Origin: Candidatus Electronema halotolerans
GTDB lineage: Bacteria > Desulfobacterota > Desulfobulbia > Desulfobulbales > Desulfobulbaceae
Assembly: GCA_942493095.1 (NCBI GenBank)
Contig: OW818675.1
Location: forward strand, 1,560,001 to 1,592,000
Direction of reading: 5' to 3'
Length of the DNA: 32,000 nucleotides
The notes beneath the pieces were generated by a model. The model did not search any database and was not told the origin of the DNA. It worked only from the letters and a program-made list of their open reading frames with translations. A program made the position numbers and the translations under genes. Positions 8,620 to 32,000 of the stretch are shown here, in pieces. Each line of letters starts with the position of its first letter. Positions within the stretch are counted from its first letter, which is position 1.

Positions 8620-8810
8620 AAAAAAACCCGCGCTGCCGTGTCAACAGAATGATTAAACCTATAGTAAAATAGGTGGGCGCGCCATGCTGGCATCGGGAAA
8701 TCCGCAAGGTTTTCCGTCAGACCAGCAGATAGGAGCTGCCCTATCAATGAGAGTTGGCTCAATACTCCGTTGATCACCAACAGCGCAGGAAAGGCTGCTG
8801 TCTCTTTCTT
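8620..8810 (-). ncRNA. ssrS: Candidate 6S RNA (about 190 nt); ends approximate
   Basis: It lies in a 650-nt non-coding gap downstream of the zapB-like gene. Hand folding gives a closing stem 8781-8789/8627-8635 (9 bp, one G-U) followed directly by a U7 run. Further helices are 8769-8773/8641-8645 and 8722-8727/8685-8690, with an apical hairpin at 8696-8715. A large asymmetric central bubble lies between them. A possible TTGTCT-N18-TATTTT promoter lies just upstream. Confidence 0.35.
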
Positions 8811-9823: not shown

Positions 9824-9943
9824 GATCTGTTTTGGCAGAGGAGAGCTTTTTACCTGTTTTTTGTCAAAAGTATGCTACAATTGACCACAACAGCCTTGGA
9901 CAGCGACGCAAGGGGCAGCTCTTTTTCCCCGCATCATAATGCC

Positions 9944-11356
9944 ATGCAGTCAGCCGTGAAACATATTCTTTTCGCCCTCTTTTTTGTTGTTCTGGCCGTC
10001 TGGCCGGTCTCAGCCCAGTTCACCAGCGCAGGCTGGGTGACTGTTCCGGCTGACACCGGCTTTCCGATGTATCCGATCATCATGCCAAACATCCGTTTCT
10101 GGGAGAAAATCTACGGCACCTACACAGAGAATCAAGGGGTGCTGCACGACCGGGACAACTTGGATGTGATTTACGGCACGGTCAATTTTGTCAGCAAGCA
10201 TACTCCAGGCGCAGCGAAAATCAATGAAAAACTGATCGACTTCTCCCGCCAGAACTATAAAAACATGCTCATCAAATTTGCGACAGGCGGCAAGGCGGAG
10301 AACAAGGAGGAGCAGCGGATTTATCTGCTCTTTGCCCGGAGAACGCCGGAGGTCTTTCGGGAAGCCAGTGAGAACATCCGCCTCCAGACCGGCCTCAAGC
10401 GGCATTTCCGGGACGGCGTGATCCGCTCCGGCGCGTACATGCCCATGATCAAACGGGTGCTGCGCCAGCAGGGCCTGCCCGAAGAATTGGCCTATCTGCC
10501 CCATGTTGAATCCTCCTTCAATCCCAAGGCCCATTCCAAGGCCGGAGCTGCCGGGCTGTGGCAGTTCACCCGCAGCACAGGCCGGGACTTTATGACCATC
10601 AATGAGCTGGTTGACGAACGCTATGATCCGCACATCGCCACTGAGGCGGCAGCCCGTTTTTTAAAAGGAAACCACCGCAGTCTCGGCTCCTGGCCGCTGG
10701 CCCTGACAGCCTACAATCACGGGCGGGCCGGGATGTTGCGGGCCAAAGAGCAGTGGGGTTCCTATCCAGCTGTTTTCGCCCGGCATAGCAGTGCAACATT
10801 CGGTTTTGCCTCGAAAAATTTTTATTCTGAATTTGTCGCCGCCTACCGGGCAGCCAAACGCCTAGAGGCTGACCACAGCGTAATCCGCGACCGGCCTTGG
10901 GCCAGCGCGACCCTCCATCTCAAAGGCTATGCCGCTGTCAAGGACCTGCTCCGCTATTTCGGCGTTTCTGCTGACGAATTCCGCCGCCTCAATCCTGCCC
11001 TGCGCCAGCCTGTGCTGGATGGAGAGAAATACATTCCCAAAGGCGTGAAACTGCATCTGCCTGCGACCCATTTCATCCGTGAGCGCATCCGCACACTGCC
11101 GGACAGACTCCTTCACAGCAGTCAGTTAGCTGACAGCAGGCCGGAGACAGGAAGCCGGAGAACTTATACGGTTAAGCGGGGTGACACCGCCTTGGGCATT
11201 GCCAGACGCTTTGGCATCACGCTGGACACCCTGCGACGGCTCAACCGATTGAACAAAAAGGCGGATGTGCAGATCGGCCAGCGGCTGACCGTTCCCGGCA
11301 GCAGCGGCAGTTCCAGCCGCCGCATGATCAAGAGCAAAGCAAAACGAAGACCCTGA
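9944..11356 (+). CDS. Membrane-bound lytic murein transglycosylase (MltD-like) with C-terminal LysM
   Basis: Track ORF 9485..11356 trimmed to MQSAVKHILFALFFVVLAVWPVSAQ (signal peptide). SLT catalytic motif PHVESSFNPKAHSKAGAAGLWQF. LysM motif YTVKRGDTALGIARRFGITLDTLRRLN. The upstream 153 codons overlap the NUDIX gene in antisense. Confidence 0.85.
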   Translation: MQSAVKHILFALFFVVLAVWPVSAQFTSAGWVTVPADTGFPMYPIIMPNIRFWEKIYGTYTENQGVLHDRDNLDVIYGTVNFVSKHTPGAAKINEKLIDFSRQNYKNMLIKFATGGKAENKEEQRIYLLFARRTPEVFREASENIRLQTGLKRHFRDGVIRSGAYMPMIKRVLRQQGLPEELAYLPHVESSFNPKAHSKAGAAGLWQFTRSTGRDFMTINELVDERYDPHIATEAAARFLKGNHRSLGSWPLALTAYNHGRAGMLRAKEQWGSYPAVFARHSSATFGFASKNFYSEFVAAYRAAKRLEADHSVIRDRPWASATLHLKGYAAVKDLLRYFGVSADEFRRLNPALRQPVLDGEKYIPKGVKLHLPATHFIRERIRTLPDRLLHSSQLADSRPETGSRRTYTVKRGDTALGIARRFGITLDTLRRLNRLNKKADVQIGQRLTVPGSSGSSSRRMIKSKAKRRP

Positions 11357-14217: not shown

Positions 14218-17200
14218 GTGAAGAAAACAATCCTGCTGTCTCTTGCCGCGATGTTGTGCTGTTTCCTGCTGCCCTCAGCATGGGCTGACAAGACGGACAG
14301 CTCCCTGCTGCGCATGTTCATGATGATACGAACAGCTTCCTCGCCCAAGGTGTCTTTGAGCGCAGAACCGGCTGCGATCAAATTGGGTGGAACAGCAACG
14401 CTGACGTGGATCAGCAAGAACGCGGACACGGTCAGCATTGACAACGGCATTGGCGCAGTCGATCTGAACGGCTCTCAGTCTGTGGCTCCGACGACGACCA
14501 CAACTTACACCATCACTGCTGCCGGAGCAAAAGGCACAGTTACGGACAGTGTCACAGTCACGGTGCTTCAGCCGCCTGTGGTTTCTCTGGCTGCTGATCC
14601 GACTTCCATCATAGAAGGGAGCAGCTCAACCCTGACGTGGACCAGCACCAATGCGGATTCCGTCAGCATAGACAACAATATCGGCACGGTCGCTGCAAGC
14701 GGCACAAGAAGCGTTTCTCCTTCAGCAGACACGACCTACAAAATTACCGCAACCGGCCCCGGCGGCACGGCCTCGGATACTGCTGCAATTACAGTTTCGC
14801 CTGCTGATGCCCCTGCAATTACGATTTCCGCAGCATCGGAGAGCATTGCCCTTGGTGCTTCCACGGAGCTGTCTTGGCAGAGCCAAAACGTTGACAATAT
14901 CAGTATTGACAACGGGATTGGCGAAGTTGCGGCAAATGGTTCTCAGAGCATCACTCCCCAGCATACCACAACTTATACGATTACCGGTTCAGGAGACAAA
15001 GGCACGGTCAGCGCGCAGGTGACGGTACAGGTGACAGGCAATCCGGCAGCACCGCCGGAAGGCTCGTTTGGTGAGCAATATGAAGACCTTATGCCGCCGG
15101 ATGCGACGATTGATGAATACGATGCCAAGCGGTTTTCGCTGATCACCGGCATGGTGCATGATCTGCAAGATGCGCCGTTAGAGGATGTGCGCGTCACGGT
15201 GCATGATCATCCTGAATACGGCACTGTAAAGACCGCTGCGGACGGCAGGTTCACCCTTCCGGCAGAAGGCGGCGGCACTATGACCATTGCCTATAAACGG
15301 GCCGGGTATATCACCGCGCATCGTCAGGTCTATGTGCCGTGGAATGACATTGCGGTTGCGGAAACGGTGCAGATGCTGGTTGAAGATTCAGCGGCCACGC
15401 AAGTCACTTTTGACGGCAATCCTGCAACCATAGCCACGCATGTAAATACGCCGGTTACGGACGAGTTCGGCAGCCGCTCTGCGACCATCGTTTTTCAGGG
15501 CGACAACATGGCCCATCTGGTTGATGAGCAGGGCAACATAATTCAGGACTTGCCGAACATTACGGCCAGAGCCACAGAGTTCAAGACGCAGGAGTCCATG
15601 CCTGCGGTTTTGCCGCCAAATTCCGCCTATACCTACTGCACGGAACTGTCCGTGGATGGCGCGGCGCGAGTGCGCTTTGACAAGCCGGTCACTGTCTGGG
15701 TGGACAACTTCCTCAAATTTGATGTCGGCGAAAAAGTGCCGGTTGGCTATTACAACCGGGATCGCGGAGTTTGGGTGCCGTCTGAGAACGGCCTTGTGGT
15801 CAAGCTCTTGGATACGGACAGCGACGGCGTTGCGGATGCCTTGGATTCGGATGGCGACGGCCAGCCGAATGATCTGAATAATAACGGTTCTTTTGCTGAT
15901 GAAGTGATTGGCTTGGAAGATGCGAGCCGGTATGTGCCAGGAAAGGAATTTTGGCGGGTAACTGTCACCCATTTCACGCCGTGGGACTGCAACTGGCCGT
16001 ATGGCCCGCCCGCTGATGCGACAGGGCCGAATCCTAATGGTGTTCCTGATGCGGAAGAACCTATAAATGATGCTGCGGAAGAACCTATAAATGATGCCAA
16101 TAACGGACTGAAAAAGGATGACACGGACTGCAACGGCTCTTACATCAAAAAACGCGGGCGGATTGTTCATGAAGATATTCCGATTCCCGGAACGGGCATG
16201 ACCCTGCATTACGCCTCTAATCGGGTGGAGGGCTACAAGCAGGTCATCACGGTTCCGGCCAGCGGCGACACGGTGCCGGACAGTCTGAAGAGCATCATTG
16301 TTGAGGTGAAACTTGCCGGGCGCACGCTGACGCAGACTTTAGAACCGCAGCCGAATAAGCAGGCGCAATTTGTCTGGGATGGTTTGGATTATTTGGGCCG
16401 CGAAGCAGGAACTGTGCAAGCTGATGTGGCTGTGGGTTTTGTCTATGATGCGGTGTATTACACAGCCAGAAATGATGTTGCCAATGCCTTTGCTCAGGCT
16501 GGAAGCGAGGTGAGCGGTATTCGGGCGCGGCAGGAGGTTACTTCGTGGCAGCGTTTTCAGCTTCAAATTAGCGCAGGCAAAGCTGCGGGCAACATTGCTG
16601 AAGGCTGGAGCCTGTCTGATCATCATGTCCTTGGAAGAGGTGCTGCATACCTTAACAAAGGGTATGGCTCCTTTTTGGAAAATAACAACACGCAAATCAT
16701 AACAACCGTGGCTGGTAACGGCTTCTATGGCTCCAGCGGTGACGACGGTCCGGCAACCGAGGCCAAGCTGAATAATCCAAGCGGAGTGGCGACAGATAAA
16801 GCGGGAAATATATTTATTGCCGATAGAGGAAACCATCGCATCCGCAAGGTGGATACAAACGGCATTATAACAACAGTGGCAGGCACCGGCTCTGAAGGCT
16901 ACAACGGCGACAACATTCCAGCTATTGATGCCAAACTTGCTGAACCAAGAGATGTCGTGGTCGATCAGCTCGGCAATATTTTCATTGCCGAATACGATAA
17001 CCATCGCATCCGCAAGGTGGATACAAACGGTATTATCACCACAGTGGCAGGCAACGGTGCTACAGGTAATGGCGGTGATGGCGGTCGAGCTATTGATGCC
17101 GAACTTCAGAATCCTTATCAATTGGCAGTGGATGAAAGCGGCAATATCTTTATTGGGCACAATACCAGCCCGATTAGCAGGTATATTCGCAAAGTGGATA

Positions 17201-20200
17201 CAAACGGCATCATTACCACTATAACAAAACCCTACAAAATAGGAGGATTAGCAGTCGATCAGGCTGGCAATCTTCTCTTTGCCAATTCAATGTTCGCTCG
17301 TATCAGTAAGATTGATTCCAGCACCGGCATCATGACTACGGTGGCCGGAAATGGCTCTGGGGACTACAGCGGCGATGGAGGCCCGGCAACCGAGGCCAGT
17401 CTTCATAATGCAGTGGATATTACTTTAGACCAAGCTGGAAACCTCTTTATTGCCGACTATGACAACAAACGTATCCGCAAGGTTGCGAACGGGATTATCA
17501 GCACAGTGGCTGGAAATGGGTCATCAGGCTCTGAAGGCGACGGCGGCCCGGCTGCTGCCGCCAGTCTTTTTGAGCCTAACAGGGTGGCAGTGGATCATGA
17601 AGGCAATATTTTCATTGCTGAGTATGGTCACCACCGCATCCGCAAAGTTGCCGCTGCATCCGCTGTGTTCAGGTCGCATCTAATGGAAGCAGGCGACATC
17701 CCCTTTGCCGACTCCAACGGCCTTGGCTACATCATGTCCGCTGCTGGTCTCCATAAAAAGACCATTGATTTAGACAGCGGCCTTGTTGTGCAGAACTTCG
17801 CATATGATAGCGACAACAACCTGATTTCCATCACCGACCAGTTCGGCAATGTCACGGCGATTGCGCGGGATGCAAACGGCACACCGACTGCCATTGTCTC
17901 GCCGGACGGCCTGCGCACCGAGCTGCACATCAACGCGGACAAGCAGCTTGCCAAGATCGTTTACCCGGACAGCAGCGCCTACAATTTCACCTACAGCCCG
18001 GACAGCCTGATGACGGTTGAGACGGAGCCGAACGGCAACCGTTTTGAACATCATTTTGATGCCAACGGCAAAATCGCTGAGGTGCTTGACGAGGAAGGCG
18101 GCCAGTGGCAATACTCGCGGCAGCGGCTGGCGAACGGCGAGGTGCGGATTGAATCAGTCACGGCTGAGGGCAACCGCACGGTAAATCTGGATACCAACGC
18201 TTCCACTGGGGCCTTTTCCACTGTCACCATTGACCCCAGCGGCAACGAAAGCAGCTTCAGCCGTTCTGCTGACGGCCTCAGTGAAACACGGGAACTTTCC
18301 TGCGGCATGACAAGCTGGACAGACTACGGCTTGGATGCGGAATACAAGTACAAGGTCGCGCAGAGCACAGGCACGCAGTCGCCTGCCGGACTGACCAAAG
18401 TCGCCCAAATAGATAAAACCTATCAGGATACGAATACAGACGAGATACCTGACCTGATCAAGGAAACGCTCTCCCGCGACGGCAGACTGACAACCCTTGT
18501 TCATAACACCCTGATCGGGGAAAAGACTGTCACTACGCCGAAAGGCAGGAAAGTGACGGCCAAGTATGATCCGGCGACCCTGCTCACCAAGAGCGTGGAA
18601 ATTCCCGGCCTTTCTCCGACCAACTATGCCTACGACAGCAAGGGCCGTTTGACCTCGGTCACGACGGATGAGCGGACAGCGGCGTTCAGCTATAACGCGC
18701 AGGGTTTTCTTGCCTCGCAGACTGACCCGGAAGGGCGCACCACCTCCTACAGCCATGATGCGGTGGGCAGAGTGACCAAGATAACCCGGCCTGATGCCAG
18801 CACGGTTCAGTTCAGTTATGACAGCAACGGCAATATGACCGCGCTGACCAATCCATCAGCGACAAATCATCTGTTCGACTACAACAAGGTCAATAAGCAG
18901 AACGCCTACAATACACCGATCAGCGGCTCATACAGCTACGTTTATGACAAGGACAGGCGGCTGAAGCGAACGGATTTCCCGTCAGGCGCGCAAATCAGCA
19001 ATATCTACACCGACAATCTGCTGACCCAGACGCAGACTCCTGAAGGCAATATTGATTATACGTACCTTTGCAGCTCCAAGGTTGGTTCGATCAGCAAAGG
19101 CGGTGAAACTATTGCCTACAACTATGACGGCAGTTTGCTCACCTCGGAAAGCAAGAGCGGCACAGTCAATCAGACGCTGACGTTCTCGTATAACAACGAC
19201 TTCGATCTGTCCGCAATCACGTATGCCGGAAGTACGGAAAATCTCAGCTATGATGACGACGGCCTGCTGATCAGTTCTGGTGCTTATGCCATAAGCAGAA
19301 ATGCGGCCAATGGTCTGCCGGAGCAGGTCAGCGGCAATGCTCTGAGCCGCAGCCGGACCTTTAACGGCTACGGCGAACTGACTGCGGAAAACTCGATGGT
19401 CAATACGCAGCCTGTCAACGGCTGGTCTGTGACTCGGAATAAGAACGGCAGAATACTGAGCAAAACCGAGAATGTGAACGGCAGCACGGTTGATTATGCG
19501 TATTCATACGACAACATGGGCAGACTGCTGACTGTGAAAAAAGGCGGCACGCTTGTGGAAGAGTATCAGTACGGCTTGAACGGCAGCCGCACGCATGAAA
19601 TGAACAGCCTCAAAGGTGTATCGAGCCGGGATTATAGCTATTCGGAGGAAGATCATCTGCTCTCCGCAGGCGATGTAAGCTATGCGTTCAATGCGGACGG
19701 CTTCCTGACCAGCAAGACCCAAGGTGCTGAGATAACCGCCTACAATTATTCCTCTCGCGGCGAGCTGCTGCAAGTCGCTCTGCCGGACGGAAAGAGCATT
19801 GAATACCTCCACGACCCGCTGGGCCGCAGGATTGCCAAGAAGGTCAACGGCACGATTGTGGAAAAATACCTCTGGCTTGGCCTGACCAAGCTCATGGCAA
19901 TCTATGACGGCAGCGACAACCTGCTGATGCGCTTTGAATATGCGGACGGCAGAATGCCCGCAGCCATGACCGCCAGCGGCGCGACCTATTATCTCAGCTA
20001 TGATCAGGTCGGCTCGCTGCGCACGGTTGCCGACGCGACCGGCAGCGTGGTCAAGGAAGTCAGCTATGATTCCTTTGGCACGATTCTTTCTGACAGCAAT
20101 TCCGCCTTGGCCGTGCCTTTCGGCTTTGCAGGCGGCCTGCATGATCGGGATACCGGATTGGTCAAATTCGGCTTCCGGGATTACGCCCCGGCAATTGGCC

Positions 20201-28465: not shown

Positions 28466-28603
28466 CTACTTGCCTGCTTTTTTCGGCGGCTTCTCTGGGG
28501 CAGCAGCCTGCGCAACCGGCGCGGCCTTGACCTTCTGGTCATGCTTCTGGGCCATCTGCTTCTTATTTTTCTCCTTGTCTTTTTTTCCGCCTTTATCTCC
28601 CAT
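28466..28603 (-). CDS. Small (45 aa) lysine-rich protein, below the ORF-track size cutoff
   Basis: Hand translation: MGDKGGKKDKEKNKKQMAQKHDQKVKAAPVAQAAAPEKPPKKAGK. A perfect AAGGAG lies 6 nt upstream of the ATG at 28603. The stop is followed by the 12-bp hairpin. Confidence 0.55.
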   Translation of the reverse strand: MGDKGGKKDKEKNKKQMAQKHDQKVKAAPVAQAAAPEKPPKKAGK

Positions 28604-28772: not shown

Positions 28773-29963
28773 CTATAAGGCTGATTGCAGCACGTCGATG
28801 ATATCCGCTTTGCTCAGAGCTGGGCGGCCAAGGAGCTTGCCGTCCGCATCATGGGCGACCAGCGCGGCATCCTCGGCGTACTGAGCAAACAAGGCATCGT
28901 TGATGCCAAGTTCTGACAGGCGGACAGGGCAGCCGATGGACTTGAGAAACTCCTCAAAGCGGTTGATGCCTTCCAAGGCGCAGGCAAGGTCATCGCTCCC
29001 TTTTGCCTTGAGGCCAAAGACCCGTTCGGCAAACTGGACAAATTTATTGGGACGCACCTTGGCGGCAAAACGCATCCAAGCCGGGTTGACAATGGCCAAG
29101 CCAGCACCATGCGTGATGTCATGGTGGGCGGAAAGCGCATGTTCAATCATGTGAACAGGAAAGCCCGCACTTCCGGCCCCGGCCTGGACCCAGCCGTTCA
29201 GAGCGACAATCGAGGCCCACTGCACTTGAGTGCGCGCTTCAAGGTCGCTGCCGTCAGCAATCGCCTTTTTGCCCCACTCCATCGCATTGATGATCACCCC
29301 TTCCGCAAAACGATCCTGAATCGGCGTGCCGTCGGCTCCGTTGAAATAGCCTTCAGTCACATGGGTGATGATGTCGCAGACCCCGTAAGCGGTCTGATCT
29401 TTGGGCACGCTCAGAGTCAGTTCCGGGTCAACCACCGCAGCTTTGGGATAGAGGCAGGCCGCTTGGACAAAGGATTTCACCTTGCTTGCCTCATTGCTGA
29501 TCACCGCGCCGCAGTTCATTTCCGAAGCAGTGGCCGCCAAGGTCGGCACCGTGATGATCGGCAGGGCCTTGGTCGGGATGGCCCAGTTTTCCTGTCCATG
29601 ACCGATCAGATTCCAAGGGTCGCCATCATAGAGAACAGCAGCCGCAATCACCTTGGCAGCATCCATTGTGCTGCCGCCGCCTAAAGCAATGACCACGTCA
29701 CAGCCTTCTGCTCTGGCCATGTCCGCGCCGCGCTGCACAGAAGTGATGCGCGGGTTGGGTTCAATGCCGGAGCATTCTGTCACGGCAAGCCCGGCAGCCT
29801 TCAGACTGGCCACTGCCCGGTCAAATGCGCCGCTGCGCTTGATGCTGCCGCCGCCCGTGACGAGCAGCGCCTTTTTGCCATGCCTGCTGGCCACTTCACC
29901 AAGTTGTGCGAGTTTGCCTGCGCCAAAGATCAGATGGGTCGGGTTGTGGAATTCAAAGTTCAT
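28773..29963 (-). CDS. Iron-containing (group III) alcohol dehydrogenase, butanol dehydrogenase/YqhD-like
   Basis: MNFEFHNPTHLIFGAGK start, the GGGS-MD-AK motif (ALGGGSTMDAAK) and the His cluster HALSAHHDITHGAGLA. Confidence 0.9.
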   Translation of the reverse strand: MNFEFHNPTHLIFGAGKLAQLGEVASRHGKKALLVTGGGSIKRSGAFDRAVASLKAAGLAVTECSGIEPNPRITSVQRGADMARAEGCDVVIALGGGSTMDAAKVIAAAVLYDGDPWNLIGHGQENWAIPTKALPIITVPTLAATASEMNCGAVISNEASKVKSFVQAACLYPKAAVVDPELTLSVPKDQTAYGVCDIITHVTEGYFNGADGTPIQDRFAEGVIINAMEWGKKAIADGSDLEARTQVQWASIVALNGWVQAGAGSAGFPVHMIEHALSAHHDITHGAGLAIVNPAWMRFAAKVRPNKFVQFAERVFGLKAKGSDDLACALEGINRFEEFLKSIGCPVRLSELGINDALFAQYAEDAALVAHDADGKLLGRPALSKADIIDVLQSAL

Positions 29964-29965
29964 GA

Positions 29966-30008
29966 GGAGTGAAGAAGGGTGAAGTTTGAAGGGTGAATGG
30001 TGAAATTC
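29966..30008 (+). repeat. Heptanucleotide tandem array A (GGTGAAG-type on plus strand)
   Basis: TGAA recurs at 29970, 29980, 29987, 29994 and 30001 (spacings 10, 7, 7, 7): TGAAGAAGGG TGAAGTT TGAAGGG TGAATGG TGAAATT. Confidence 0.85.
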
Positions 30009-30012
30009 AGTG

Positions 30013-30363
30013 TCATTTTGCTTTCAGCTTTTTGCATATTGCGGTAAGGATGGCGGTCAGTTCATTGCATTCCTGTTTTAATCCGTCGAGTTGGGTGGAT
30101 TCTATCAGTTCAGCTTCTTCAATCAGTTCGAGCCAGTACAGGCTTTCGTGCGCTTCTTTCACAGCAATGCTGTATTTGGTCAGAAAGTCGGCCTTGCTTT
30201 GCGCGCCTTCTCCTTCGGCGATATTTGCCCCGATTGATGTTCCAGAGCGAAGCAGTTGTCTGCCAAGTGTTTTGTTGATTCCCGGTTTTTGATCAAGGAC
30301 TTGACAGAGTTTTACAATTCGCAGGGCAAATTTCTTTGATCGGTCTGGTAAATCACGTTTCAT
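30013..30363 (-). CDS. Four-helix-bundle protein (23S rRNA intervening-sequence protein / Avd family)
   Basis: 116 aa with the family core LGRQLLRSGTSIGANIAEGEGAQSKADFLTKYSIAVKEAHESLYWLELI. Confidence 0.85.
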   Translation of the reverse strand: MKRDLPDRSKKFALRIVKLCQVLDQKPGINKTLGRQLLRSGTSIGANIAEGEGAQSKADFLTKYSIAVKEAHESLYWLELIEEAELIESTQLDGLKQECNELTAILTAICKKLKAK

Positions 30364-30380
30364 AATTTCATCATTTATTC

Positions 30381-30432
30381 TTTACCCTTCACACTTTACC
30401 CTTCACCTTTCAAACTTCAACCTTCACCTTTT
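30381..30432 (+). repeat. Heptanucleotide tandem array B (TTCACCC-type on plus strand)
   Basis: Seven exact-period heptads start at 30381: TTTACCC TTCACAC TTTACCC TTCACCT TTCAAAC TTCAACC TTCACCT. The hsdS stop codon (30417-30419) lies inside the array. Confidence 0.9.
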
Positions 30433-31697
30433 GGAATGCGCAGTTCGCCGGAGAGGAGTTTTGGGAGCAGGGTGTCGCGGAGGGTTGCAAGTGTTTTGTT
30501 TGAGAAGCAATTTAATGAAATTTTATCAAAGTAACTTGTCCCAATCTGCAAAAAACAATTCATAATTTTTTGTGAAGGCAGCAATATACTTGCCTCATTG
30601 ACATTTCCTTTATTGATATGCTGTTGCGCTCCGCCAGTTTGAGATGAAATAATTCCCTCTATATTGTTTGTTATCCAAAGATAGACGAACTCATTTGGAA
30701 GTTCTTCTTTTCCAAGAATTCCAACAACTGATTGATTAGCACAACATTCAATTTCGTTCAGACTAACCTGACCGAGAGTTGCTCCTGTTATGGCCAGAAG
30801 AGTTGTTCTTTTTGGTAAAAGTTTTGTCGCAGATTTTCGGACTGCTTCCTCAGTAATCAATTCTGAAGGTTCAATAACTCTAAATTCATTAACCTTACCT
30901 GAATTTATCCAAGGAATGCTTCCATTATTCCAAAACTCCTTATTTTTACGTGCAGGAGTTCCACCAAGGATAGTTTCTAATTCATCACCAATTTTTGTAA
31001 TCTCCCACCCCTTGGGAACCCACCCCATTTCATCGCTGTAAACAAACTCATCAGGGAAAAGAGCGCGGATTTCAGCAGGAAGCGGCTTGCGCTTGTCGCC
31101 CAATGCAGCACGAGCAGCAGCACGTCCAGCAATCTCCTCCGGCACTTCCTTGCCGCTGGCAATGGCATTGTCAATCACCGGGTCAAAATCAACAAACCAG
31201 CTTTTGAACAATGCCTGCGCCATCGCCTCCAAGGTTTCATTCATCCGCCGGTTTAACTCGATTCGGTCATCAAGAGAACCAAGAATATGGGCAATGGCTT
31301 TTTGTTCTGAGAGTGGAGGAACTTTAATTTCTATCGGATGGATAAAGTTTCGATTCAAAGACGGTTGAGCACTGCCAGAATTAAATCTGGTAAAATCTAT
31401 TGATTTTAAAAGATAATATGCAAACTTCGGATAATTACCATGAAACTCGTTCACGTAGAGGGCAGTATTCAACGGCCAATAATCAATTGGCGAGTATGAA
31501 ACCACCCCAATAGATCCACCACTGCGACCAATTGTTACACCTGGTCCAGTGGCCTTGCTTTCGTTATGCCATCCTGTAATCCCAAAGGAGCCTAATATTG
31601 GTACCTTTCCTATAGTTCTTTTGCCTTCAGGTAAATCATGTCCTCTTTGTAAGGTCACAAATTCACCAAGCGTTTTGTCCTTCCACTCATTCCCCAT
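30417..31697 (-). CDS. hsdS: Type I restriction-modification specificity subunit HsdS (two TRDs), with no hsdM or hsdR in the window
   Basis: Central conserved region PPLSEQKAIAHILGSLDDRIELNRRMNETLEAMAQALFKSWFVDF and a C-terminal repeat of it (LATLRDTLLPKLLSGELRI). Two variable TRDs. GGAGG Shine-Dalgarno sequence upstream. Confidence 0.9.
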   Translation of the reverse strand: MGNEWKDKTLGEFVTLQRGHDLPEGKRTIGKVPILGSFGITGWHNESKATGPGVTIGRSGGSIGVVSYSPIDYWPLNTALYVNEFHGNYPKFAYYLLKSIDFTRFNSGSAQPSLNRNFIHPIEIKVPPLSEQKAIAHILGSLDDRIELNRRMNETLEAMAQALFKSWFVDFDPVIDNAIASGKEVPEEIAGRAAARAALGDKRKPLPAEIRALFPDEFVYSDEMGWVPKGWEITKIGDELETILGGTPARKNKEFWNNGSIPWINSGKVNEFRVIEPSELITEEAVRKSATKLLPKRTTLLAITGATLGQVSLNEIECCANQSVVGILGKEELPNEFVYLWITNNIEGIISSQTGGAQQHINKGNVNEASILLPSQKIMNCFLQIGTSYFDKISLNCFSNKTLATLRDTLLPKLLSGELRIPKGEG

Positions 31698-31764
31698 AAC
31701 CCAGCACCTCCAAATTCCTCAGAATCACCGAATCAAACTCCGCCGCACCCCACATAACACCTCG
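31687..31764 (-). pseudogene. Possible 3'-terminal remnant of an hsdM gene
   Basis: A frame that opens only after a TGA inside array C reads ...MWGAAEFDSVILRNLEVLGYGE*. It ends 8 nt inside hsdS, the typical hsdM/hsdS overlap geometry. It is too short to be a gene, and the assignment rests on tail resemblance and geometry only. Confidence 0.25.
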
Positions 31765-31790
31765 GCATGAGAGGTAATATATCCCCCCAA

Positions 31791-31840
31791 TCTTCACCCT
31801 TCACCCTTAACCCTTCCCACTTCACCCACCCCTCACTCCC
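31791..31840 (+). repeat. Heptanucleotide tandem array C (TTCACCC-type on plus strand)
   Basis: TTCACCC TTCACCC TTAACCC TTCCCAC TTCACCC from 31793 with exact 7-nt period, then a C-rich tail. The sbcC stop (31822-31824) lies inside the array. Confidence 0.9.
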
Positions 31841-32000
31841 GGCCCTCTGATCAAGCTCCGCCCGCCCGCTTTAGGCAGCACCTCAATTCGACAAGCAATC
31901 CGCTCCTTGAGCGCAGCAACATGCGAAATCACCCCGATCAGCCGCCCTTCGCGGCGCAGCTCGGCCAGACTTTCCAAGGCCGTGTCCAAGGCTGCATCAT
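31822..32000 (-). CDS. sbcC: SbcC-type (SMC-like) exonuclease ATPase, C-terminal 58 codons; continues past the window end
   Basis: Hand translation: DAALDTALESLAELRREGRLIGVISHVAALKERIACRIEVLPKAGGRSLIRGPGVRGG*. It closely parallels the E. coli SbcC tail LDTALDALDALNASGKTIGVISHVEAMKERIPVQIKV. Confidence 0.8.
   Translation of the reverse strand, partial: DAALDTALESLAELRREGRLIGVISHVAALKERIACRIEVLPKAGGRSLIRGPGVRGG

Follow-up and report, generated by a model that had tools for sequence, protein, structure and literature searches.

A stretch of 32,000 nucleotides from Candidatus Electronema halotolerans (contig OW818675.1, positions 1,560,001 to 1,592,000; hereafter the window) carries a small gene for a four-helix-bundle (4HB) protein of family PF05635, and this gene is enclosed by two inverted arrays of tandem heptamers, here called B and A. 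The element is a 4HB cassette of the type found as intervening sequences (IVS) in 23S rRNA genes, accompanied by a third array (C) and by a co-transferred orphan hsdS. Cassettes of the same architecture are present across many phyla, each with a lineage-specific heptamer that travels with the gene, and they occur in loaded and empty states. As a working explanation we favour, with some reservation, that arrays B and A are the inverted arms of an IVS-type cassette located outside rRNA, and that they would form a double-stranded RNA (dsRNA) stem processed by RNase III. The way in which the cassette works, be it RNA processing, protein binding or DNA recombination, is something that we infer.

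An earlier note on this DNA had described three GGGTGAA/TTCACCC arrays, and these are present at essentially the positions it gave (its array B, written 30381-32, corresponds to 30381-30432) and in the orientations it described; hsdS is bracketed by the direct arrays C and B, and array A is inverted relative to both (Table 1). A two-unit pattern with at most two mismatches matched ten times, all within arrays A, B and C, against 0.24 matches expected, and none of 100 shuffled sequences reached ten; the same pattern found no other GGGTGAA array in the 32-kb window. Tandem Repeats Finder (TRF) assigned a period of 7 to arrays A and C, and periods of 14 and 21 to array B. Read from the outer to the inner end, the units of array A are GAGGAGTGAA GAAGGGTGAA GTTTGAA GGGTGAA TGGTGAA on the plus strand (29964-30004), and those of array B are AGGTGAA GGTTGAA GTTTGAA AGGTGAA GGGTAAA GTGTGAA GGGTAAA on the minus strand (30429-30381), followed by the two degenerate units, which come after 30381 and run down to 30367. 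Array C reads GGGAGTGA GGGGTGGGTGAA GTGGGAA GGGTTAA GGGTGAA GGGTGAA, also on the minus strand (31840-31793). The rare variant GTTTGAA is common to arrays A and B, in the same outer-to-inner position, and an outer GGAGTGA motif is common to arrays C and A.

Table 1. Genes and heptamer arrays of the block analysed in the window
Feature	Position	Strand	Description
Fe-dependent alcohol dehydrogenase (ADH)	28773-29963	-	start codon abuts array A
Array A	29964-30008	-, reads TTCACCC-type on coding strand	about 5 units; 3' arm of 4HB cassette
4HB gene	30013-30363	-	116 aa, intact, full length, RSxxSIxANIAEG motif
Array B	30367-30432	-, GGGTGAA-type on coding strand	7 clear and 2 degenerate units; 5' arm of 4HB cassette
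hsdS	30417-31697	-	426 aa, orphan, two target-recognition domains; PF01420 in two stretches, E=1.5e-39
Array C	31793-31840	-	third array, same heptamer family; direct to B, inverted to A
SbcC-like ATPase gene, 3' end	31822-32000	-	58-aa C-terminus, runs off window

The 4HB gene is fitted tightly between its arms. Array B ends 3 nt before the 4HB ATG, and array A extends from about 5 nt past the 4HB stop to 2 nt short of the ADH ATG (29963), so that the cassette fills the whole intergenic space from the hsdS stop to the ADH start, in the same orientation as both neighbours; no Shine-Dalgarno sequence is left before the ADH start. In the minimum free energy fold of the 496-nt sense RNA (30445-29950, minus strand), a predicted B:A stem of about 40 bp encloses the entire 4HB open reading frame (ORF). 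The B:A pair therefore supplies the terminal inverted-repeat stem of at least 20 bp around the ORF by which an IVS is recognised, and array B (7-9 units) supplies the tandem heptamers directly upstream of the start of an S23p gene. All three arrays sit at gene boundaries, as intergenic tandem heptanucleotides of the short tandemly repeated repetitive (STRR) type do. The inserted block is AT-richer than its surroundings, as had been noted earlier, with a GC content of 0.35-0.47 across 29900-31700 against 0.56-0.62 in the flanks. No Rfam family was matched at the arrays, the single Rfam match in the window being a 6S RNA, and promoter and terminator scans around the block found sites no more numerous than in shuffled sequence.

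Profile matches uphold the genes named in the earlier note. The 4HB protein matches PF05635 with 86.5 bits (cut-off 33.8, E=1.7e-24, residues 7-107), TIGR02436 with 108.6 bits (cut-off 24, E=1.8e-31, model positions 3-109 of 109) and PDB entry 2RLD (E=2.6e-23, residues 5-114), and it carries the motif GxxRxxxSxxxNxxE conserved in the PF05635 family (PMC3936711), which here reads LGRQLLRSGTSIGANIAEGEG. What had been labelled sbcC is best called SbcC-like, as the fragment of 58 aa has just a weak match to TIGR00618 (36 bits, model positions 995-1034 of 1043). The hsdS gene is probably foreign in origin because its GC content is 0.35-0.41. Its product has the two target-recognition domains of a type I restriction-modification (RM) specificity subunit, and its upstream neighbour is the SbcC-like gene; for hsdM and hsdR, no methylase or helicase-nuclease gene was found among the window ORFs of at least 150 aa, the window ending at 32000. 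All four genes of the block are on the minus strand.

The association of 4HB genes with heptamer arrays is general. One genome per GTDB species was scanned with peptides of the window 4HB protein, which gave 72 loci (73 with the window) in at least ten phyla (Planctomycetota, Chloroflexota, Bacteroidota, Verrucomicrobiota, Spirochaetota, Bacillota, several phyla of the candidate phyla radiation, Gammaproteobacteria, Acidobacteriota and Cyanobacteriota). A simple period-7 detector found these genes bracketed by tandem heptamers, the unit of which differs by lineage. Strict period-7 arrays were present in 35 of 76 upstream and 23 of 78 downstream flanks, compared with 52 of 5790 background windows (0.9%), while periods 4-6 and 8-12 were essentially absent from the flanks and the averaged autocorrelation peaked at lags 7, 14, 21 and 28. 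By TRF, 126 period-7 arrays (including the multiples 14, 21 and 28) lie in the ~34 kb beside 4HB genes and 187 in the other ~1.03 Mb, a density about 20 times higher beside the genes. With gene ends set by hidden Markov model, an array is present on at least one side of 62 of the 70 full-length 4HB genes (89%). Arms of the same type are carried by the records of cultured Nostoc punctiforme, Anabaena cylindrica and Treponema saccharophilum.

On a plasmid of Anabaena cylindrica PCC 7122 (L209, 1036-3127) the 4HB gene is located between the cas2 and cas1 genes, on the strand opposite to theirs. Heptamer arrays of the AAGTAAA type flank it on either side, and an inverted array of 16 units follows further downstream; PF05635 genes have been noted inside cas operons before (PMC3936711). 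Plasmid pTS1 of Treponema saccharophilum (L210, 2125-2934) has a 41-unit GGAAAGN array and an inverted partner upstream of the 4HB gene and 11 inverted units downstream of it, and these arms are among the longest seen. In a metagenome-assembled genome of Paludibacter (L030, 4256-4733) a heptamer array of ~480 nt, made of TTCTTGG/TTCTTGA units, lies ~5 kb from the 4HB gene.

The two arms of a cassette match each other. Of the 53 hits with arrays on both sides, 48 have two arrays that are reverse complements of each other; in 40 the consensus heptamers are identical or one position apart, where random pairings centre on 3-4 differences. The mean duplex energy is -44 kcal/mol for cognate upstream and downstream flanks and -28 kcal/mol for non-cognate ones. 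Inverted array pairs with matching heptamers and 300-520 nt apart hold a 4HB gene in 35 of 35 cases; a further 11 pairs lie less than 150 nt apart, none of them with a gene, and no pair falls at 150-300 nt. These empty forms are strong hairpins (z-scores -7 to -12). Some of them directly follow a stop codon and have a T-run behind them (L187), and in some the heptamer arrays extend a GC-rich core hairpin (L007). A third array in direct orientation, as in the window, is also present at L007, L013 and L052. No 4HB gene was located inside a 23S rRNA, the sarcin-ricin motif being missing from all fetched loci.

Cassettes also have a consistent position among the genes around them. In 65 of 68 loci the 4HB gene points the same way as the gene upstream and in 54 of 68 the same way as the gene downstream, and the median distance from array end to 4HB start is 26 nt. 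The earlier note had observed that both genes upstream of an array in the window terminate inside it, and this is correct (SbcC-like TGA at 31822-31824 in array C, hsdS TGA at 30417-30419 in array B); the positional point also generalises, as in 35 of 46 cassettes the stop of the upstream gene is placed at -30 to +15 nt relative to the start of the array, and in 17 of 46 it falls inside the array. Its suggestion that the arrays cap the upstream gene with stops in three frames fared less well. Array B does have stops in all three frames of the minus strand (3/2/2), but array C, which is degenerate, leaves one of the three open within its coordinates. In the 58 upstream arms, stop-containing heptamers are as frequent in the sense (26/58) as in the antisense direction (25/58), and 22 arms are purine-rich and 18 pyrimidine-rich, with no consistent purine polarity. 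A three-frame stop cap as a selected property was therefore rejected.

Neither do the arrays belong to hsdS. Scanned in bulk against Pfam, the 68 upstream and 68 downstream neighbours of the cassettes proved to be housekeeping genes, including purine-nucleoside phosphorylase (PNP) and uridine kinase (udk) in Pyrinomonadaceae, aconitase-family subunits, PheT, MnmA and others, and Methylase_S was found in just 2 of 68 loci. It is thus the 4HB gene, and not restriction-modification, that the arrays accompany. An RM association as a general feature was rejected on this count, and with it the module of hsdS plus 4HB gene that had been proposed for the window.

Heptamers follow the gene that they flank. 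Heptamer distance falls as 4HB protein identity rises, also across differing genomic contexts (rho = -0.47, n = 945), and where a genome has several paralogues their heptamers differ, each being paired with a complementary partner. A Spirochaetia chromosome (L009) has a junction which matches that of the window, with the hsdS C-terminal conserved region, an array and the 4HB start in succession; its array reads GTGTGAA TGGTGAA GGGTAAA GGGTGAA, and the junction shares ~70-79% DNA identity with that of the window, with a difference of about two units. This DNA homology indicates that the hsdS 3' end, array B and the 4HB 5' half are one inherited unit, which was transferred horizontally and moved between phyla as one piece. 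At L009 (8106-10330) the 4HB gene behind hsdS is itself chimeric, being 67% identical to the window protein over ~64 residues and unrelated thereafter, and it lies within an apparently complete type I RM operon.

Constraint was assessed in 14-15 orthologous Pyrinomonadaceae cassettes. The ratio of nonsynonymous to synonymous differences (pN/pS) was 0.22 for the 4HB ORF compared with 0.29 and 0.26 for the neighbouring genes, which shows purifying selection on the 4HB protein similar to that on its neighbours, and the synonymous sites of the 4HB gene are near saturation (pS ~0.76). Orthologous arm heptamers had a mean distance of 1.9, compared with 3.25 for random heptamers and 3.72 for other cassettes, so that the arms are conserved. 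They also change in concert; at the PNP-udk site of L056 (~9860-10300) both arms have become GTTTTTA/AAACTAA together and are still perfectly complementary. Relatives with ~80% identical uridine kinase have the same PNP-udk junction without the 4HB gene. In four of them (L204-L207) the junction is occupied by an empty hairpin made of (CACAGAG)3, a 45-nt loop and (CTCTGTG)3 (-46 kcal/mol, z = -10.6), and two others (L202, L203) have a degenerate version of it. Since the heptamer of the empty site differs from that of the loaded cassettes, it records turnover at the site and not a simple excision footprint.

The closest known elements to the window cassette are the ORF-bearing 23S rRNA IVS of Coxiella and Leptospira. 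The Coxiella IVS is 428 nt long and has an S23p (PF05635) ORF within a 28-bp terminal-inverted-repeat stem; two to three tandem GACAGAT heptamers, strain-variable in number, lie upstream of the ORF, and RNase III excises the element in vitro, with the cleavage mapped at the first repeat (Warrier et al., PMC4990558). The statement in the earlier note that no function was described for such arrays in this context was, given these heptamers and the RNase III site at the first of them, too strong. Both elements have PF05635-family cargo, an ORF within an inverted-repeat stem (28 bp in Coxiella and ~40 bp, as predicted, in the window), tandem heptamers immediately upstream of the ORF, a size of ~430-480 nt and a scattered, horizontally transferred distribution. 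In contrast to the IVS, the window cassette lies between the protein-coding genes hsdS and Fe-ADH and not in a 23S rRNA helix (9, 25 or 45), and both of its arms are made of heptamer arrays. The RNase III cut is mapped in Coxiella, whereas the dsRNA substrate in the window is just predicted; and the Coxiella ORF has been reported as decaying, whereas orthologous cassette ORFs are under purifying selection. No general link between heptamer arrays and PF05635 was found in the literature beyond the Coxiella report, with subscription journals mostly uncovered, so that an earlier description is possible.

By analogy with Coxiella, the arms would form dsRNA in a polycistronic transcript and host RNase III would cut the arm duplex, as demonstrated for the IVS. 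Such a cut would free the 4HB message or insulate it, and the cistrons on either side would still be usable, so that insertion exactly between ORFs, or within rRNA, would be tolerated. Slippage together with hairpin-templated correction may keep the two arms alike.

The window ADH is ~80% identical to that of Desulfosarcina. An ADH relative of 93% identity (L076) has an AGGAG Shine-Dalgarno sequence and no array, and another of 89% (L077) has a three-unit TTCACCC remnant abutting the ADH ATG, with an IS110-like transposase fragment (2136-2924) upstream of the ADH orthologue; the synteny of both differs from that of the window. Near-identical contigs break inside the 4HB gene, and neither excision nor inversion variants were seen in the three such contigs. 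For neither the HsdS nor the 4HB protein of the window is an exact match on record.

Several observations weigh against reading B and A as the arms of an RNase III-processed cassette. Comparison of the sbcC-ADH interval for empty sites, which the earlier note had suggested, yielded none among the near-identical contigs and the 93% and 89% ADH relatives, and the differing heptamer of the empty Pyrinomonadaceae hairpin means that simple loss or gain of the ORF is not shown there. Array A has a better predicted duplex with C (-60.9 kcal/mol) than with B (-38.9 kcal/mol), which a simple B/A cassette does not explain; C and A may have been the original arm pair, with hsdS and B entering later, or C may be an arm on its own. 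Duplex energies of the sense and the antisense strand, compared for G·U asymmetry, do not differ (p=0.38), so that a DNA-level structure is equally compatible. Pairing is independent of unit order (mirror-order covariation, p=0.09), so that fine base-pair covariation is not demonstrated. As strand energies are equal and unit order is irrelevant, recognition of the repeats by a protein and array-mediated recombination stay live alternatives. The 72 genome loci were chosen as relatives of one protein, and other PF05635 subfamilies are covered by literature alone.

The association is also weak in the reverse direction. Among 120 metagenome stretches selected for exact (GGGTGAA)3 alone there were 125 array blocks, one of which (L191) adjoins a 4HB gene, and Pfam detected PF05635 in 1 of 77 small ORFs adjoining these arrays. 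The probability of an array given a 4HB gene is thus ~0.9, and that of a 4HB gene given an exact (GGGTGAA)3 array ~0.01. The earlier note had proposed tabulating what the arrays flank, 4HB genes or RM subunits in particular; 4HB genes do lie in arrays, but an exact (GGGTGAA)3 array seldom adjoins one, and RM genes do not recur beside the cassettes. The claim is therefore narrowed to 4HB genes sitting in such arrays, and does not extend to such arrays being 4HB arms. Heptamer arrays are a broad intergenic class, wider than cassette arms, and 4HB genes live in them. In the same sample, 11 loci had close inverted partners, i.e. empty hairpins, and many arrays lay just upstream of a gene on the TTCACCC strand. 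At one locus (L123, 1-560) a FlgJ/rod-binding-like ORF of ~110 aa lies between inverted (GGGTGAA)6 arrays, which are 389 nt apart and have the polarity of the window cassette; this ORF is possibly a non-4HB cargo.

STRR sequences have been known since 1990 from heterocystous cyanobacteria, in which the units of STRR1-3 are CCCCAGT, TTGGTCA and CAACAGT. The comparison with them in the earlier note was apt, as these heptanucleotide simple sequence repeat (SSR) arrays are alike in kind and the 4HB genes of Nostoc and Anabaena carry arrays; the window arrays are not STRR proper, having a Desulfobacterota-like host and the unit GGGTGAA. In X. campestris 186 GGGAATC arrays have been described, 70 of them in convergent pairs, at a mean of 28 nt after the upstream ORF (Rehm et al., PMC4692102). 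Array #15 begins 6 nt after the accB stop and overlaps the start of XCC0516, which encodes a crystallised 4HB protein (PMC4692102 supplement); the table of that paper places the array at XCC0516, and the link between array and 4HB protein was not noted by its authors. The mechanism of the TAACTGA arrays of Beggiatoaceae is not known (MacGregor, PMC4679880). STRR, GGGAATC and TAACTGA arrays share with those described here the period of 7, lineage-specific units, an intergenic position close against the starts or ends of ORFs, pairs that are often convergent or inverted, and a horizontal distribution. Unlike in those studies, the arrays here are linked to 4HB genes, and the window unit is GGGTGAA in a Desulfobacterota-like genome.

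The arrays may alternatively be recognised by the protein itself, in a manner resembling that of repetitive extragenic palindromic (REP) sequences and the REP-associated tyrosine transposases (RAYT). A toroidal 4HB oligomer would bind its cognate heptamers as RNA or DNA, the flanking arrays would be autoregulatory sites, and distant arrays of the same heptamer would be targets or products of the 4HB protein in trans. We regard this as rather unlikely, even though several results agree with it. Heptamer type tracks 4HB similarity across unrelated contexts (the rho of -0.47 above) and differs between paralogues in one genome, the protein is under purifying selection, and one of the 186 X. campestris arrays is carried by the 4HB gene of that genome. 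Distant arrays have the heptamer of the local 4HB arms in 50 of 176 cases, compared with 15 of 176 in the control. The sole characterised relative, Avd of diversity-generating retroelements, is a pentameric nucleic-acid-binding 4HB protein (PMC10053308), and the 2RLD entry has five chains. However, the correlation would follow without any binding if gene and arms are simply inherited together; 72% of the distant arrays differ from the local 4HB heptamer, and arrays A, B and C are the only GGGTGAA arrays in the visible 32 kb of this genome.

The likeness to REP/REPIN-RAYT systems lies in one small gene that has inverted copies of a dispersed repeat on its two sides, in hairpins at the gene ends and in the existence of loaded and gene-less forms. 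Unlike in those systems, the flanked gene is a PF05635 member without the Y1 (HUH) transposase fold and with no transposition chemistry known, and the repeats are tandem heptamer arrays and not single palindromes. The window does encode a RAYT, a 235-aa Y1 transposase at 20893-21600 on the plus strand (NF047646, 83.1 bits against a cut-off of 80), which lies 9 kb from the arrays and has no flanking heptamer arrays. With Avd the window protein shares a homologous four-helix-bundle fold (Avd_IVP-like superfamily); unlike in diversity-generating retroelements, neither a reverse transcriptase domain nor a template/variable repeat pair was found in the annotated window ORFs (~30 kb seen). To our knowledge, Avd genes have not been described as flanked by heptamer arrays.

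Taken to its widest extent, each PF05635 lineage would recognise its own heptamer, as RNA or DNA, and would seed, maintain or use dispersed arrays genome-wide, a proposal that we consider unlikely. If it were true, the 4HB protein would be the sequence-specific partner of the heptamers in a gene-plus-repeat system akin to REP/RAYT but based on a toroidal protein that is not an enzyme, and this would explain the prokaryotic excess of heptanucleotide SSRs, STRR included, as well as the purpose of the IVS/S23p family.

The model put forward in the earlier note, in which the arrays would let modules such as hsdS and the 4HB gene be swapped, excised or inverted and would terminate an ORF fused upstream, we hold to be improbable. 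It would account for the direct repeats C and B around hsdS with A inverted to both, for the shared outer ends and best pairing of C and A, and for the AT-rich and foreign character of the block. The array remnant at the ADH start of L077 after an IS-associated rearrangement, the direct third arrays at three other loci and the upstream genes that end inside arrays, both in the window and in 17 of 46 other cases, would also fit. The sense strand has, however, no excess of stop-bearing heptamers, RM genes do not recur as neighbours, and no recombinase is present in or adjoining the cassette among the annotated window ORFs; the co-orientation in 65 of 68 loci argues that arm-to-arm inversion is rarely fixed, and the three near-identical contigs have no excision or inversion variant. 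The arrays may have some role in recombination.

Equally improbable is a reading of the arrays as common heptanucleotide SSRs prone to slippage, or as terminator-like hairpins at gene ends, in which 4HB genes merely tend to land or survive and which have no function connected with the gene. In its favour, ~99% of (GGGTGAA)3 arrays are without a 4HB gene, empty hairpins can stand right after stop codons with a T-run or be built on a GC-rich core, and an excess of heptanucleotide SSRs is general among prokaryotes (cited in PMC4692102, PMC4679880). Yet the arms accompany the gene from one phylum to another, are not the same for all paralogues of a genome, keep their heptamer family and complementarity despite near-saturated synonymous sites, and adjoin 89% of 4HB genes against 0.9% of background windows.

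In the cassette two separate puzzles that are decades old, the function of the 4HB "23S rRNA IVS / S23" protein and the tandem heptanucleotide repeats, are physically coupled. Small 4HB S23 proteins occur in rRNA, CRISPR-Cas operons, RM loci and housekeeping operons, and among the long SSR classes of prokaryotes none is more over-represented than heptanucleotides. Both puzzles become testable in cultured X. campestris (XCC0516, between accB and accC), B. thetaiotaomicron (BT_0352) and Nostoc punctiforme (NPUN_RS34315). For annotation, inverted period-7 arrays can be used to mark cassettes, and they explain contig breaks and the odd start or stop contexts of neighbouring genes.

Other features of the window lie outside the array block. 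Just downstream of the ADH, at 28466-28603 on the minus strand, is a lysine-rich ORF of 45 aa (MGDKGGKKDKEKNKKQ...), which is gene-called on the Logan and JGI sister contigs too and has no family match on record. The 6S/SsrS RNA mentioned above, the sole Rfam match at the gathering threshold, is located at 8621-8794 on the minus strand (56 bits). A 2169-aa RHS/teneurin-like YD-shell protein with NHL repeats is encoded at 14218-20727 on the plus strand, and within its gene lie a 168-bp tandem repeat (16798-17155) and a stretch of 24 bp that is exactly duplicated (16050-16097).

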